Shown here in pieces: positions 903 to 10,371 of a stretch of 14,423 nt of DNA. The notes under the pieces are model-generated. The model saw only the letters and a list, made by a program, of their open reading frames with translations, ran no database searches and was not told the DNA's origin. Source of the stretch: a virus (Duplodnaviria > Heunggongvirae > Uroviricota > Caudoviricetes); IMG/VR virus record IMGVR_UViG_2531839179_000017. The stretch is one strand, 5' to 3'. The position numbers were made by a program, and so were the translations under genes. Positions within the stretch are counted from its first letter, which is position 1; every line of letters starts with the position of its first letter.

Positions 903-1184
903 TTACCGCCGCAACCGCTCCGGCTTCTTCCAGTGGTACGTTATTTTCTCCTTCTCCCGATACATCTCCACGCGGCGACGGTAGGCCAGCAACTCAAGAG
1001 CTCTGGTTCGTATGTTGCGCATATCCACGCCATTAAGTTCTATACCATCACGGCGCATCACCTCAGCAACAACACGCGCATAGTTTTCGGCTGTCACGCT
1101 GTCCGGCTGCGTGGCCTGTTCGTCAGCCTGCTGGCTGATTCCGGCAACGCGGCGGATTAATCCCGTTATTTCGGCTTCTGTCAT
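903..1184 (-). CDS. Hypothetical protein, last gene of the packaging operon
   Basis: 93-aa ORF; ATG at 1184 preceded by TGAGG about 9 nt upstream and placed 14 nt after the large-terminase stop (1198-1200). No family recognised. Confidence 0.45.
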   Translation of the reverse strand: MTEAEITGLIRRVAGISQQADEQATQPDSVTAENYARVVAEVMRRDGIELNGVDMRNIRTRALELLAYRRRVEMYREKEKITYHWKKPERLRR

Positions 1185-1197
1185 GCTGCTGACCTCA

Positions 1198-2859
1198 TTA
1201 CACCCCGCTAAATTCTTCCAGTTTCTGGCGGTGGCTGTCGCTTATATCAAAAGCAAAATCCTCATGCTCTGCCTGGAATGTACCAAACGCCATCAGCGCC
1301 GCCACGCTCGGGTCTATCTTGTTCGGTGATTTTTTCTTGTTCGGCTTGATATTGGCGTTCGCGTCACTCTGCATCACGACGTTACTCATCGACCAGGACA
1401 ACACCGGATCGCCACGATGCACAATCACCCTGCGGTTAACAAAAACTTCGAACGATTTCGCCGCCGGACTGAATCTGAGGTAGGTTTGCGGGAACGGCTC
1501 CACCTCAAAACCTGCCCCCTGTAATTGCGTTCTGAGATGCGTGGCGTTCCACGTATCAAAGCCCACCAGCCTGATATTAAATTTCTCCGCGTCCTGCATG
1601 ATGTCATCTCTGATCCGGTCGTAATCAATGCAGTCGCCAGGCGTTGTGCGTATCCAGCCTGCTTTAGCCCACTGACGATAGATGGCGCGGTTTTTATTGG
1701 CGGGGTTCTGTAGCTGAAATTCCGGCAGATAGTGACGGGAAACCAGCATAATGGTTTTACCGACCGGAAAGGCATAGCACACGCTGGAAATATCGCTGGT
1801 TGATGATAAGTCCAGCCCCGCGTAACACTCCTGGCCGTGTAAATCTTCCTCCGTGAACGTTCCGGCACACTCAGCCCATGCGCCGTTACCCATCCACGGG
1901 GTAGCCCCCTGGCACCAGATATTAAATCGCTTTGTCATCATCTCCACCCACTGCGACGGAATACCCCGCGCTTTCTGGATGGTTGAGGCCAGTTTTTCAC
2001 GATCCACGGAAACATCGATGTTAGGGTTAGCCTTTATCCACATCGCCGGATCATCAACCTCGTTTTCGTCGTCCAGCTCGTAAATCAGCACAAAAATTGA
2101 ATCGTTGACCTCTTCGCCGTCCAGGATCTGGCAGCAATAATCATAGTGCTGTTTACAGGCTGAAACGACGTTACTGCCCGATGTGGTAATGGCAAATAAC
2201 AGCCCTTCGGGACGTGCGCCCATCCCCAGCTCAAGCGCGGAATAAACGCCGTTATCGGGGTGTAGGTGGTATTCGTCCACGATGGAAAGGCTGGGGTTTG
2301 TTCCCTCGATGGTTGCCGCTTTTGCTGCCAGCGGCTTTAACAGGCTGTTGCTTTTCGGGTGCATCACCTTGTGGGCCTGAATATTCACCCGCCTGCGTAA
2401 CGGTCGGGATAAAAGGCACATCTGACGCGCATCATCAAAAACGATCCGCGCCTGGTCACGGCTCACCGCTGCGGTGTAAATATCCTGCTGCCCGTTCTCC
2501 ATAATCAGAAACCAGTTAGCCAGAATCGCGGCGGTCGTGGATTTCGCATTTTTGCGCGGCACTTCGATAAAGGCGCTCGTATATTTGCGCCGTCCGGTGG
2601 CCTTAACCTTAAAGCCGAGGATGCACGCAAAGGCGAACTGCTGCCACGGCTCCAGCTCAATGGGGCTACCGCGCATTGCGCCTTTTACGTGCGGGCACAC
2701 CCTGGAAAAGGCAATAAACCGCTCCACAACCTCACGATCGAACGTGTAAAGGGGGCTTTCAAGGTCCGAAAAGTACCGTTTAACGGCCTGTTTCAGCCGT
2801 TTACAGGCCGGAATTTTGCCCGTTTTTACGTCTTCTGCGTACTTATTCCAGGCGGTCAA
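1198..2859 (-). CDS. terL: Terminase large subunit (HK97/Terminase_1-like ATPase-nuclease)
   Basis: 553-aa ORF with typical TerL N-terminus (TAWNKYAEDVKTGKIPACK) and overall TerL-like length and composition. First codon is TTG at 2859 with AGGA about 6 nt upstream; overlaps the terS 3' end by 17 nt. Confidence 0.85.
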   Translation of the reverse strand: MTAWNKYAEDVKTGKIPACKRLKQAVKRYFSDLESPLYTFDREVVERFIAFSRVCPHVKGAMRGSPIELEPWQQFAFACILGFKVKATGRRKYTSAFIEVPRKNAKSTTAAILANWFLIMENGQQDIYTAAVSRDQARIVFDDARQMCLLSRPLRRRVNIQAHKVMHPKSNSLLKPLAAKAATIEGTNPSLSIVDEYHLHPDNGVYSALELGMGARPEGLLFAITTSGSNVVSACKQHYDYCCQILDGEEVNDSIFVLIYELDDENEVDDPAMWIKANPNIDVSVDREKLASTIQKARGIPSQWVEMMTKRFNIWCQGATPWMGNGAWAECAGTFTEEDLHGQECYAGLDLSSTSDISSVCYAFPVGKTIMLVSRHYLPEFQLQNPANKNRAIYRQWAKAGWIRTTPGDCIDYDRIRDDIMQDAEKFNIRLVGFDTWNATHLRTQLQGAGFEVEPFPQTYLRFSPAAKSFEVFVNRRVIVHRGDPVLSWSMSNVVMQSDANANIKPNKKKSPNKIDPSVAALMAFGTFQAEHEDFAFDISDSHRQKLEEFSGV

Positions 2860-3199
2860 GCTCGTCCTCTTCTTCTGTTTCCGGTGGATTTTTACGGCGG
2901 CTTATCGGGTCAAAACCGAGCAAGGAGGCCATTTTTATCATCACTCTTTCAGCGTCGGATTTTGCGCTTAATGCGGGGTTTCTGCTCTCGCCGCCCTGAC
3001 TGTTAACAATGCTGAACCCGCGCGCCGCAAGGTCTGCAACGGCTTTCCGGTAAATGGAGTAGTTGACACAATACAGTTCCAGATTACTCCAGTCGGCGGG
3101 GGTAAGGTCTCCCCGTTCCGCAAGCTGCCGCGATTTTTCCCGCCACTGCTTCACGGCGATATCATCCAGGTAGGCGGGGGCTTTCGGTGGTCTTGCCAT
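2843..3199 (-). CDS. terS: Terminase small subunit (P27-family-like)
   Basis: 118-aa ORF, ATG at 3199; sequence MARPPKAPAYLDDIAVKQWRE...LELYCVNYSIYRKA resembles P27-family small terminases; sits immediately upstream of and overlapping terL. Weak Shine-Dalgarno. Confidence 0.7.
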   Translation of the reverse strand: MARPPKAPAYLDDIAVKQWREKSRQLAERGDLTPADWSNLELYCVNYSIYRKAVADLAARGFSIVNSQGGESRNPALSAKSDAERVMIKMASLLGFDPISRRKNPPETEEEDELDRLE

Positions 3200-3244
3200 G
3201 CTTATTTTTTCGCCAGATTATTTTTCAAAAAATTCCCGTGCATA

Positions 3245-3310
3245 AAAATTTGAGGAGGCGGTCGGTGCCCGGCGGGGTCGGGTTTGTCCTGAAAACGCCC
3301 CCCACCCCGT
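3245..3310. other. Candidate cos / packaging-initiation region in the HNH-terS gap
   Basis: About 290-bp gap between HNH stop (3489) and terS start (3199) containing a GC-rich block GAGGAGGCGGTCGGTGCCCGGCGGGGTCGGG flanked by AT-rich runs. In HK97-like cos phages the cos site lies between the HNH gene and terS. Position-based inference only. Confidence 0.3.
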
Positions 3311-3488
3311 CATACAGCCTCATCAGCGATTGCGGAAACATTCCATAACCTCGCGGTCACGGTCGGTTAATCGCTTCGCTGTGATGCGTTCTGCGCGTCC
3401 TGACGCTTTATCTTTATGCCCTGTTTCCTGTGTCTTCCATGCGTCACGCTGCCTTATAAGTCCACGGATAAGGCGGTTTTGTTCCCGC

Positions 3489-3929
3489 TCATTCATCAGC
3501 GTCATACATCCAGTTATTGCGGTTAGCGGCCCGTTCTTCCTCCTCACGGAATCCGCCAGCGGCACGCTTGCTTTTTGTTGCCGGATCAAGCCACTTCGTT
3601 TTCTGGTTATGACACGCCTGGCACAATGGCTGATGGTTCCATTCGGGCCAGAAGAGAACATCATCACCGCCATTAATCGGGATAATGTGATCCACCACCA
3701 CGGCGGGCGTATATATCCCCTTCTCAAGGCATCGCACGCATAACGGGTTTTTACTCAGATACATGGCGCGGTATTTGTCCCACTGTCTGGAGTACCCACG
3801 CGCGCGGCGGTGTCCTCGTCTGGCATCCTCTGCACGCCATGCCGCCCGCCTGTGCTCCTCACACTTGCCGGACTTCACGCGCCTGTTACAGCCTGGTTCT
3901 GTGCATCGTCTTAATGGTTGCCACGGCAT
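3489..3929 (-). CDS. HNH endonuclease (terminase-associated)
   Basis: 146-aa ORF, ATG at 3929; Cys-rich N-terminus (CTEPGCNRRVKSGKCEEH), catalytic-like DHIIP...N...W.E.NHQPLCQACHNQK motif; located directly upstream of terS as in HK97-type packaging modules. Confidence 0.8.
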   Translation of the reverse strand: MPWQPLRRCTEPGCNRRVKSGKCEEHRRAAWRAEDARRGHRRARGYSRQWDKYRAMYLSKNPLCVRCLEKGIYTPAVVVDHIIPINGGDDVLFWPEWNHQPLCQACHNQKTKWLDPATKSKRAAGGFREEEERAANRNNWMYDADE

Positions 3930-4225
3930 CAGTACACCCCCACATCACGGTAAGCCGTCCAGAGTGCGCCTATCGTCATGGGTACGCGTGTTTTTGCGTT
4001 ATCCGCGACAATCTGGCGATTTTCATACAGGTGAGCGATAAACATCATGCAGCCAATCTTTATGGCTGGCGTGAACGCCAGCCCGTCATCAAAGCGCCTG
4101 CCTATATGTATCTGGCACGCCTCAAGCGATGCGGCAATGTATCCGCTGATTAACTGGTCTTCCTCGTCGCCATCGATGCGGCAATGGAGTTTCACTTCTT
4201 CCAGGGTGATAAGTTCTTCTGTCAT
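3929..4225 (-). CDS. Head-tail connector protein (gp6-like)
   Basis: 98-aa ORF, ATG at 4225; stop overlaps the HNH start (TGATG). Size, position and sequence are typical of phage head-tail connector/DNA-packaging gp6-like proteins. Confidence 0.6.
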   Translation of the reverse strand: MTEELITLEEVKLHCRIDGDEEDQLISGYIAASLEACQIHIGRRFDDGLAFTPAIKIGCMMFIAHLYENRQIVADNAKTRVPMTIGALWTAYRDVGVY

Positions 4226-4560
4226 TTTTCCGCGCCCTCACGACAAAGAATTTCAAGGCGTGTCCTGGCGGCATCCGGCAGCGGCTGCCCGATGATATTC
4301 AGTACACGCCCCGCCAGCGGCCCCGTATTGACCTTTACCCGGCTGGTGGCGTTGATGTCCTTCCTGTAGCGTATCCATATCCTTACCGTTCCAGTCGCCA
4401 GTTCTGCACCCGATGAAATGGCCTCCTTGCTGCTGATCATGTTCACGCTTGCCCAGAGTGTGTGACCGTCCACCCACGTTTCGAGTATTTCGCCGGTTAT
4501 ATCCCTGGTCTGTTTCAGGGTCTGAATCGTTACCCTGTCACGCAGTCGCCCTATGTTCAT
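4222..4560 (-). CDS. Head-tail adaptor / head-closure protein
   Basis: Start chosen at ATG 4560 (MNIGRLRDRVTIQ...), which overlaps the portal stop as ATGA; the track's longer start at 4602 lacks a Shine-Dalgarno. About 112 aa, consistent with head-tail joining proteins. Confidence 0.6.
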   Translation of the reverse strand: MNIGRLRDRVTIQTLKQTRDITGEILETWVDGHTLWASVNMISSKEAISSGAELATGTVRIWIRYRKDINATSRVKVNTGPLAGRVLNIIGQPLPDAARTRLEILCREGAEK

Positions 4561-8769: not shown

Positions 8770-8975
8770 TGCCCACCTCTACCCACTTTTTTCGCCCACT
8801 TTTTACGTTTTCCCACTTCGTCCAACGTGGGAAATTTGGGATTTATATCATCTTGTTTCATAGGTATTTTTTTAGTGCCCACTTTTTGGGATATATACAC
8901 GTGGGAAAGTGGGTAATTTTGTTAAAATTCCGTTAAATCGCCCACCTTTCCCACTTTTAATGCCCACTTTTTACA
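8770..8975. repeat. Iteron cluster with AT-rich spacer: putative replication origin
   Basis: At least nine direct copies of a CCCAC(T)nTTT-type motif (for example GCCCACTTTTT at 8794, 8877 and 8962; CCCACTTTT at 8782 and 8950) plus inverted copies (GTGGGAAA at 8827 and 8901), interrupted by AT-rich stretches at 8838-8876; immediately 3' of the replicative ATPase gene. Confidence 0.7.
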
Positions 8976-10371
8976 GTGGTCCTACATCATCACCGTCAAT
9001 GTAGATCACGTCGTCTTTTTCCAGTTTGGCTAACCATCGTTTAAGGTGTTTTGTGTCATACCCCAGCTTTTTCATATCGTCACGTAACAGCGGGATCGTG
9101 CACTTGTCGCCGTGCTGTGTGCGTGAACGTATGCATCCCCATAGCGCGGTATGGTTTTCCGTCTTGTTGCCTGCCTCCTCGATGCGCTCCAGTTCAACGG
9201 GAGGGCGCGGCTTATCCACCACCACCAGCGACGTGATTAATTCACCGTCAGCGTCGGTAAAAAGCTCCACCACGCGTAAGTCATATGCGGCTTCTTTGAG
9301 TTCCTCCGCGTCCTTCATTTTGGTGCATGAGATAACCAGCGCTTCGCTTCCTGCGTCCTCCCTGCGTATCCGGTATTCAGCATCCAGCGAAGCACGAAAT
9401 GCACTGGAACCGCGCGCGCCTTTCGTCTCATCCTTGCCGGAATGGTGAACCACCAGCACCGTGGCCCCTGTGCGTCGTTTCAGTTCGTCACAACCACGGA
9501 TAAACGCCCCCATATCACGGGAATCATTTTCATCATTCCCACCAAAGCAACGCGCCAGCGTATCCAGAATAATCATGCGTACAGGTTTACCCGTTTCCCG
9601 CTCCACCTGACGGGCAGCGATAACCATTTCATCAACATCAAGCGGGGCAGCCGGAAAGATGGGGCGGTTTACCAGATACAGATTTTTCACCTGCTCATCG
9701 TGCACAACCTCCCAGGCTTTTACACGACGCGGAACACCTATACCGCCTTCACCAACCACATAGAGAACCGCACCATGTGCAACCCTGCGGCCTCCCCACT
9801 GGCGACCAGTGGCAACATGGCACGCCCACGATCCGGCAAGGAATGATTTATAGGACCCGCTAGCCCCGTATATGCTGCATAGCGATACCGCCGGAATAAT
9901 CCCCTTAACCACGTAATCCAGTTGCGTGTCGTATCCGGTAGATCCAACGCTCATCGGTAGCGTGGTTTTTCGCTGGTGGTTTTTTTCTTCCGCCGGCTCT
10001 TTCCCGCGCACCCGTTCCAGGTATTCGCGCCAGTTCTCCCGCATATGGCTGTGCATCCCTTCGGGGTAATAATTCGCATCAGTTACACCCGCCGCCGCCA
10101 GCTTGTGCGCAATGGCATTAATATTTGATGGCCTGATGTGGCCTGCCTTGTACAGCCGGACACAATAGCGCCCCTCGTCGATGATTCTCAGGTCTGCCAG
10201 TTCATCCAGTTGATCATCAGCCAGCACAACGGGAGGCACATTATCGCCAGCCAGTCGCCCGTCCTGTTCCTGCCACTGTTTCGCATGTGCCCAGGCATCA
10301 CTACCCGCAAAAATAATGACTTCGGTCATCTTGTCGTAAGGCTGTTTTTTTAAGTTCGGTGCGCTTTTCAT
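8971..10371 (-). CDS. Replication initiator ATPase/helicase (RecA-like, AAA_25/RepA-type) with C-terminal winged-helix-like region
   Basis: 466-aa ORF, ATG at 10371 overlapping the upstream stop (ATGA); Walker A GASGSYKS, Walker B-like RMIILDTLARCF, conserved VLVVHHSGKD...GARGSSA block typical of RepA/DnaB-like RecA-fold replicative ATPases. Confidence 0.8.
   Translation of the reverse strand: MKSAPNLKKQPYDKMTEVIIFAGSDAWAHAKQWQEQDGRLAGDNVPPVVLADDQLDELADLRIIDEGRYCVRLYKAGHIRPSNINAIAHKLAAAGVTDANYYPEGMHSHMRENWREYLERVRGKEPAEEKNHQRKTTLPMSVGSTGYDTQLDYVVKGIIPAVSLCSIYGASGSYKSFLAGSWACHVATGRQWGGRRVAHGAVLYVVGEGGIGVPRRVKAWEVVHDEQVKNLYLVNRPIFPAAPLDVDEMVIAARQVERETGKPVRMIILDTLARCFGGNDENDSRDMGAFIRGCDELKRRTGATVLVVHHSGKDETKGARGSSAFRASLDAEYRIRREDAGSEALVISCTKMKDAEELKEAAYDLRVVELFTDADGELITSLVVVDKPRPPVELERIEEAGNKTENHTALWGCIRSRTQHGDKCTIPLLRDDMKKLGYDTKHLKRWLAKLEKDDVIYIDGDDVGPL

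Follow-up and report, generated by a model that had tools for sequence, protein, structure and literature searches.

The DNA analysed here (the window, 14,423 nt, IMG/VR record IMGVR_UViG_2531839179_000017) raises the question of what occupies the interval between its HNH endonuclease gene and the small terminase gene terS, and whether the packaging machinery cuts there. The preliminary description put this interval at about 290 bp and called it unusually long for a tightly coupled operon. It spans 3200-3488 (289 bp, from the end of HNH, read from 3929 to 3489, to the start of terS, read from 3199 to 2843), so that the length is real, but it is mostly accounted for by a small gene and the gap is not empty: 174 of the 289 gap bp (3323-3496) belong to this gene, and non-coding DNA is confined to the 123 nt of 3200-3322. 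The GC-rich block between A/T runs that had been placed at 3252-3289 was recovered when GC content was computed in 40-nt windows (0.70-0.725 over 3250-3309 and 0.30-0.33 over 3190-3259). In all probability the window is a capsid-forming phage-inducible chromosomal island (cf-PICI) of the EcCIEDL933 type, with its own HK97-type cos site in the 123-nt non-coding gap and with the small ORF as a genuine gene. A specialist would search this interval first for a cos site, and the result is largely expected; what goes beyond the preliminary description is a prediction at the level of single bases, with the overhang at 3255-3264. The features are collected in Table 1.

Table 1. Features of the window and mean pairwise identity of the compared segments among TerS-retrieved relatives.
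Feature	Position	Strand	Mean pairwise identity	Basis or remark
Integrase	14423 to 13206	-		ORF list and Pfam
Major capsid protein	7539 to 6382	-		ORF list and Pfam
Prohead protease	between major capsid protein and portal	-		ORF list and Pfam
Portal	5768 to 4557	-		ORF list and Pfam
Head closure protein	between portal and head-tail connector	-		ORF list and Pfam
Head-tail connector	4225 to 3929	-		ORF list and Pfam
HNH endonuclease, packaging-associated, 146 aa	3489..3929	-		Pfam PF01844 (E 1.8e-8); phrog_144 (E 8e-45)
Small basic ORF, 57 aa, phrog_3173	3323..3496	-		full-length profile match; start overlaps HNH stop (ATGAATGA)
Right-end conserved block GACGGGGTGGGGGGCGTTTTCAGGAC	3287..3312	-		last base of its G-run 43 nt from minus-strand nick
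G-run	3308-3298		0.76	
Variable spacer, 13 nt, between G-run block and cut site	3270..3282	-	0.34	
Cut region	3269-3255		0.69	
Predicted cosN overhang, minus-strand CGACCGCCTC	3255..3264			contig ends of relative and HK97 register
Left-end conserved block CTCAAATTTTTATGCACGGGAATTTTTTGAAAAATAA	3218..3254	-	0.85	about 25 genera
Left-end A/T-rich block	3254-3219		0.85	
terS, small terminase, 118 aa, Terminase_4 / P27 family	2843..3199	-		Pfam PF05119 (E 1.3e-23); phrog_83
terS codon positions 1 / 2 / 3			0.83 / 0.88 / 0.50	
terL, large terminase, 553 aa	1198..2859	-		Pfam TerL_ATPase and TerL_nuclease
Flanking non-coding DNA			0.33-0.40	

The window is a cf-PICI, a phage satellite, and no HK97-like prophage. 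The features that define this class were found in the ORF map, in the Pfam matches and in loci of 99% and 97% identity as annotated by RefSeq. All relevant genes are on the minus strand (ORF list and Pfam), and in the direction of transcription they are ordered integrase, replication module, major capsid protein, prohead protease, portal, head closure protein, head-tail connector, HNH, small ORF, terS and terL. The 99%-identical islands of E. coli, in which RefSeq annotates the HNH gene as an HNH protein, sit between roxA and phoQ, have the same gene order and show no tail or lysis genes in the RefSeq annotation; among 5,426 complete genomes of E. coli, 533 contain the stretch 2800-4000, in each case on the chromosome. 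A satellite of this kind, of about 15 kb, would provide its own capsid, portal, HNH, TerS and TerL, and would take only tails from a helper phage. This is how EcCIEDL933, the prototype cf-PICI, has been described: in experiments on EcCIEDL933 itself, the helper HK106 induced the island and it moved with helper tails only, and hnh, terS and terL are among the genes of its packaging module (Alqurainy et al., bioRxiv 10.1101/2022.09.08.507074).

We placed EcCIEDL933 at 1,680,329-1,694,760 of the EDL933 chromosome, where it is integrated between roxA and phoQ as are the close relatives of the window. The packaging modules of EcCIEDL933 and the window share 96.8% identity, and in the cos region the two differ by one base, at 3261. 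This polymorphism falls inside the predicted 10-nt overhang, which reads CGACCGCCTC in the window and CGAACGCCTC in EDL933, both forms being common in relatives. By contrast, a DUF927 primase is encoded in EDL933 (L427, 4039-6171) and a RepA-family helicase in the window (8971-10371, minus strand), and such differing replication modules beside 96.8%-identical packaging modules are mosaicism between cf-PICIs. Three other records, LR881103.1 ('Escherichia phage vB_KppS-Ant') and OR544139.1 and OR544138.1 ('Pasteurella phage Pmp7/Pmp8'), share the gene order and size of cf-PICIs and are apparently satellites that were entered as phages; the 2.3-kb gene 3' of terL in vB_KppS-Ant bears the annotation of a tape measure protein. 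In the window, a 93-aa ORF lies directly 3' of terL (903-1184, minus strand), which matches phrog_1561 (E 2e-55), a family with no assigned function, and is hypothetical in RefSeq. Moreover, the copy in Shigella flexneri SFBU1023 (CP182556.1, at ~1,163,000) carries a deletion in the equivalent of window ~3180-3272, which runs between two CCCCGCC repeats and fuses the spacer (...GACCCCGCC) to terS at about codon 8; since the cos core and the start of terS are missing, this copy is presumably immobilised.

To avoid circularity, relatives for the comparison of the non-coding DNA were retrieved via the TerS protein and not via a DNA motif. The retrieval gave 80 loci from contigs of one genome per species, with TerS 63-84% identical, in Klebsiella, Citrobacter, Enterobacter, Kosakonia, Serratia, Erwinia, Pantoea, Pectobacterium, Proteus, Providencia, Photorhabdus, Xenorhabdus, Aeromonas, Gilliamella, Frischella and Avibacterium, among others, and identities were computed on 42 distinct loci (upstream regions) of about 25 genera. 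The same blocks with the same spacing were found in these 42 distinct terS-upstream regions, in the order G-run (GGGGTGGGGG), A/T stretch ending in GAC, about 13 variable nt and the cut region, the relatives reading GG(A/C)ACC-GCC-GCCCC after the variable nucleotides and then CTCAAATTTTTAYGCACGG..TTTTTTTGAAAATAA. For the conserved motif CTCAAATTTTTATGCACGG the window has a single occurrence, where 0.01 would be expected by chance. As shown in Table 1, the blocks are about as conserved as codon positions 1 and 2 of terS, and the variable spacer is at about the level of the flanking non-coding DNA. In Pasteurella Pmp7 and Pmp8 the left-end DNA block is 80% identical and TerS only 66% identical. 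Judged from these sequences, the non-coding blocks are under purifying selection, far above the neutral expectation.

Signals for the expression of terS-terL (a promoter, a terminator, an RBS region or a regulatory RNA) could also be conserved at this place, with the packaging site elsewhere, and the blocks do lie directly upstream of terS and contain a TTGAAA-like hexamer and A/T tracts. However, a search of the gene strand gave no promoter-like site, the sole match being on the opposite strand (1 found versus 0.9 expected), a terminator search of the gap found none, Rfam gave no match at E<=1, and no consensus RNA structure was obtained (alifold -1.7 kcal/mol, single-sequence z-score -0.7). 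Expression signals would also leave unexplained two observations given below, contig ends exactly 10 nt apart and an in-register match to the HK97 genome ends. Hence we consider an origin of the blocks in expression alone highly improbable, and we read them as parts of a cos site.

Two other candidates in this DNA were rejected. A hairpin or dyad in the variable spacer (3282-3270) is no better than chance, the best stem having 2.29 bp on average over the 42 loci versus 2.08 bp in shuffles, and the frame of a 53-aa plus-strand ORF (3187-3348) is broken by stops in two relatives (L004 and L005). Reading AATCAAATTTTTA as an IHF site is speculation, as the consensus, matched by eye, is fitted perfectly only in Pasteurella and at 7 of 9 positions in the window. 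In Xenorhabdus hominickii, the G-run upstream of terS has grown to four or five tandem GGGGTA units.

An HNH gene beside terS and terL is described in cited work as a hallmark of HK97-type cos packaging, and HK97 ends carry 10-nt 3' overhangs. The window has its site at the location typical of this class, between a packaging-associated HNH gene (Pfam) and terS-terL, as both cos sites lie between HNH and terS. The HK97 record is linear, with terS beginning at nt 50 and the HNH stop codon 319 nt before the right end. We assumed that the two ends of this RefSeq record are the exact nicks, with the overhang included at the right end. Joined in this way (slashes mark the nicks), the HK97 ends read ...GGGGGGGGGATCAAATCTTCAAAACCTTTGCCCCAAATGAC/CGCCGCCAAA/GTTTGAATTTAACGCTAACCCGATTTTTTTAG..., and the window at the same junction reads ...GGGGTGGGGGGCGTTTTCAGGACAAACCCGACCCCGCCGGGCAC/CGACCGCCTC/CTCAAATTTTTATGCACGGGAATTTTTTGAAAAA...; nearest the nicks, HK97 has GAC/CGCCGCCAAA/GTTTGAATTTAACGC (GAC/CGCCGCCAAA/GTTTG) and the window CAC/CGACCGCCTC/CTCAAATTTTTATGC. 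Common to both is the order of G-run, A/T stretch, spacer, xAC/CGxCxGCCxx/, A/T-rich block with a T-run, and terS. G-run and end are 42 nt apart in HK97 and 43 nt apart in the window, end and T-run are 21 nt apart in HK97 and 20 nt apart in L192 (the larger part of the metagenomic contig described below), and base 1 of HK97 aligns with the first base of L192. Thus three elements, namely G-run, C-rich cut region and T-run block, are in register with HK97, a likeness that lies in motifs only, and a BLAST comparison found no HK97 match. The preliminary description had suspected an HK97-like cos site in the GC-rich block, and its location is borne out in that the proposed staggered cut falls inside 3252-3289 with the architecture in register with the HK97 cos junction.

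The two systems differ in several respects. The overhang is CGCCGCCAAA in HK97 and CGACCGCCTC in the window, and the left block differs as well; this divergence fits the report that packaging of EcCIEDL933 is exclusive to the island and that packaging of island and helper is mutually exclusive (bioRxiv 10.1101/2022.09.08.507074). HK97 uses the HNH protein gp74 with TerS gp1 and TerL gp2, whereas the TerS of the window is of the P27 family and is only distantly related to that of HK97. Moreover, the module of the window is permuted (capsid ... HNH, cos, terS, terL), so that cos lies mid-way in the integrated element, and the small ORF before cos is from another family. In HK97 itself, the stretch from the HNH stop to cos holds an unannotated frame of ~67 codons (MKDLIIEYRDGKF..., L219 ~690-900, nt ~39,390-39,600), the sequence of which is unrelated to the small ORF.

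The same order of cos blocks, G-run included, is present in SfV. The SfV record (ends of NC_003444.1) starts ~18 nt further left than HK97 and the cf-PICIs would lead one to expect, and hence the deposited SfV ends may not be exact nicks. With lambda, which has 12-nt 5' overhangs and is without an HNH protein, the window cos shares no sequence similarity. A likeness is suggested in the three-part layout of cosQ, cosN and cosB, namely an upstream conserved element at the last-packaged end, followed by the site of cutting and, towards terS, a further conserved block.

The physical ends of relatives point to the same place. This evidence consists of assembled contigs from relatives 70-98% identical to the window. 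IMGVR_UViG_3300022664_000095, a complete relative of 15,518 bp from a metagenome, comprises L192 (1-14263) and L270 (14264-15518) and is linear in a permuted, excised order: terS, terL, an accessory gene, integrase (3207-4430), primase, capsid genes, HNH and the small ORF. It starts with CTCAAATTTTT (longer read-out CTCAAATTTTTACGC), at the base aligned to window 3254, and stops with ...GGCAC (longer read-out ...CAAGGCAC), at the base aligned to window 3265. Missing from it are exactly the 10 nt (3264-3255, CGACCGCCTC) that are seen in junction-spanning relatives, and exactly 10 nt separate the equivalents of 3254 and 3265 in every variant among the 40 commonest junction-spanning ones listed (for example CGACCGCCTC, CGAACGCCTC and CGCCCGCCCC). 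A short stretch is absent at the junction of such a linear assembly because 3' overhangs are removed in end-polishing. According to the PhageTerm paper, 3' cos ends are recognised by such a junction gap; its HK97 data place the left end at 2047 and the right end at 2036, an interval of 11 positions in which coverage is almost nil. The contig ends of the relative thus point, as indirect evidence, to fixed ends with a short 3' overhang, as in an HK97-type cos.

Two more sequences agree with this location. In the isolate-genome contig L259, which is 97.6% identical to the window, the terminus is at 3264 rather than 3265. LR881103, deposited as an 'induced prophage' of 16.5 kb from induced particles, is linear and has the cf-PICI gene order; it ends with ...TTTTCAGGAC and starts 22 nt before terS, and with the ends so placed ~69 nt are absent, centred on the same cut point. 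Xenorhabdus draft contigs break off 25-45 nt ahead of terS; the breaks resemble assembly artefacts caused by repeats, and we left them out as evidence on ends.

These ends might instead be accidents of assembly, the DNA being packaged by a headful (pac) mechanism. The information on ends comes from two contigs and one trimmed record only, for which the library preparation is not known, and a bulk metagenome scan for contigs ending at the cut added none, as 0 of 67 loci, mostly integrated copies, ended at the nicks. However, a circular or concatemeric assembly would produce overlapping ends and not a 10-nt gap, and the gap coincides with the position predicted independently by the HK97 alignment. 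The adjacent HNH gene also speaks against headful packaging, as do observations of the cf-PICI authors, whose later preprint mentions the cohesive ends of cf-PICI cos sites and reports cohesive-end concatemers of packaged cf-PICI DNA. Packaging by headful is therefore extremely improbable, and we return to cohesive ends. The HK97 alignment and the contig ends are two independent lines that agree on the same two nicks, predicted from sequence as 3255/3254 on the minus strand and 3264/3265 on the plus strand, with 10-nt 3' overhangs in the window as in HK97. On this basis the 123-nt non-coding DNA is read as the satellite's own HK97-type cos site, and as a new case of the 3' cos class.

A packaging scheme can be proposed from this arrangement. 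After excision and replication, the TerS of the satellite would recognise cos, its likely target being the near-invariant A/T-rich block at 3254-3218 adjoining terS, a cosB-like candidate by analogy with lambda. TerL and the HNH protein would then make the staggered cut at the two predicted nicks, which would leave 10-nt 3' cohesive ends (CGACCGCCTC). Packaging would begin at the terS-proximal end and halt at the next cos, and the G-run block at 3312-3287 may serve as a termination element, again by analogy a candidate counterpart of lambda cosQ.

The remainder of the gap is occupied by the small ORF. The 57-codon basic frame on the minus strand that had been noted from ATG 3496 to the stop at 3323 translates to MNEREQNRLIRGLIRQRDAWK..., with 16 K/R versus 10 D/E and a pI of 10.7, and it proved to be conserved and protein-coding, as indicated by its phrog_3173 match, its codon-position pattern and its 26 versions. 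An in-frame alternative start at 3505 gives the 60-aa model of RefSeq, in which the product is the hypothetical protein WP_000174067/68. The stretches of the small ORF compared between the window and EcCIEDL933 are identical, yet WP_000174067 and WP_000174068 differ somewhere by at least one residue. The profile match (E 6.2e-37) pairs residues 1-57 with profile positions 1-57 of a family with no assigned function. Translation of the TerS-retrieved loci gave 26 distinct versions of 46-57 aa from ~18 genera, with the N-terminal pattern M-x-E-x-[ED]-x-x-x-L-x-x-[GSA]-L ... [RS]-[ED]-x-[FWY], then a variable basic linker and a C-terminal part R-[DE]-[RK]-[ED]-[LVI]-x-[ED]-[CA]-F-R-N-R-stop, conserved as RDRELMECFRNR. 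Identity by codon position is 0.62/0.66/0.46 over the whole ORF, with a median dN/dS of 0.43, and 0.76/0.86/0.47 over the last 14 codons, where CGN/AGR swaps of arginine codons are found; this pattern argues for constraint on the protein and not on the DNA.

Could the frame be open by chance and never translated? It is short, with no strong Shine-Dalgarno sequence and no Pfam family, and some annotations miss it (for example in L004). Against this, the frame is open in 26 distinct sequences down to ~35% identity, variation is in excess at the third codon position, arginine codons are swapped between CGN and AGR within the invariant FRNR motif, and the PHROG match is full-length. A chance frame is thus very unlikely, and as judged from its sequence conservation the small ORF is a genuine gene, limited to certain lineages and translationally coupled to HNH.

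The function of its product is less certain. AlphaFold2 predicted helices at residues 3-32 and 45-55 and a disordered linker at residues 31-36 (pLDDT <50), with a mean pLDDT of 77. Profile searches of Pfam, NCBIfam and PDB gave no match for the small protein, and among 5.8 billion proteins only close homologues from E. coli and E. fergusonii were found, all hypothetical, with 4 clusters in the set of 1.8 billion representatives. The ORF is absent from most Xenorhabdus, Pasteurellaceae and Gilliamella loci, although the cos blocks are kept there, and therefore it cannot be a general requirement for cutting a cos of this type.

Genetic data bear on this point. When the packaging module of EcCIEDL933 was mutated, transfer was abolished for every gene except hypothetical gene 1792, the mutant of which showed severely reduced but not abolished transfer (bioRxiv 10.1101/2022.09.08.507074). 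Gene 1792 may be either the small ORF of the window or the 93-aa ORF 3' of terL: the texts of the cf-PICI preprints give neither the position or sequence of cos nor an unambiguous name for the small ORF, and locus-tag searches for gene 1792 returned no match, the RefSeq record of EDL933 carrying only new locus tags.

The small ORF may be a real gene that is no packaging factor and encodes a regulator or an anti-helper or anti-host protein, or that is a selfish insertion between HNH and cos. Its absence from many relatives with the same cos blocks would fit such a role, as would the fast evolution of its middle part (dN/dS 0.43, with indels) and the lack of a detectable DNA-binding fold in the searches above. 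On the other hand, the position of the ORF is fixed inside the packaging operon, where it starts over the HNH stop and, in most loci carrying it, stops 12-16 nt before the G-run, and the severe transfer defect of the gene 1792 mutant argues for packaging if 1792 is the small ORF and not the 93-aa ORF. We give a role outside packaging somewhat less than an even chance. The most likely role of the product would be that of an accessory packaging factor, which is plausible but hypothetical, as is the DNA-binding or packaging-specificity factor proposed in the preliminary description. In its specific form, the phrog_3173 protein would be a putative fourth packaging component of this satellite lineage, acting at cos or bridging HNH, TerS and TerL, and would aid island-exclusive packaging; we regard this as conceivable but rather unlikely. 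If true, the protein would keep the related HK97-type machinery of the helper off the island cos, and vice versa.

cf-PICIs are recently described, widespread satellites that move between species. The exact cos sequence with its predicted 10-nt 3' end would provide a simple marker for packaged cf-PICI genomes in viromes, and it would define the minimal cis element for mobilising cargo in cf-PICI capsids. The satellite cos has diverged from the HK97-type site of the helper, with the layout kept. Moreover, the small ORF is a concrete target in the search for an extra, lineage-specific packaging factor, and its possible role in packaging is the point of greatest interest.
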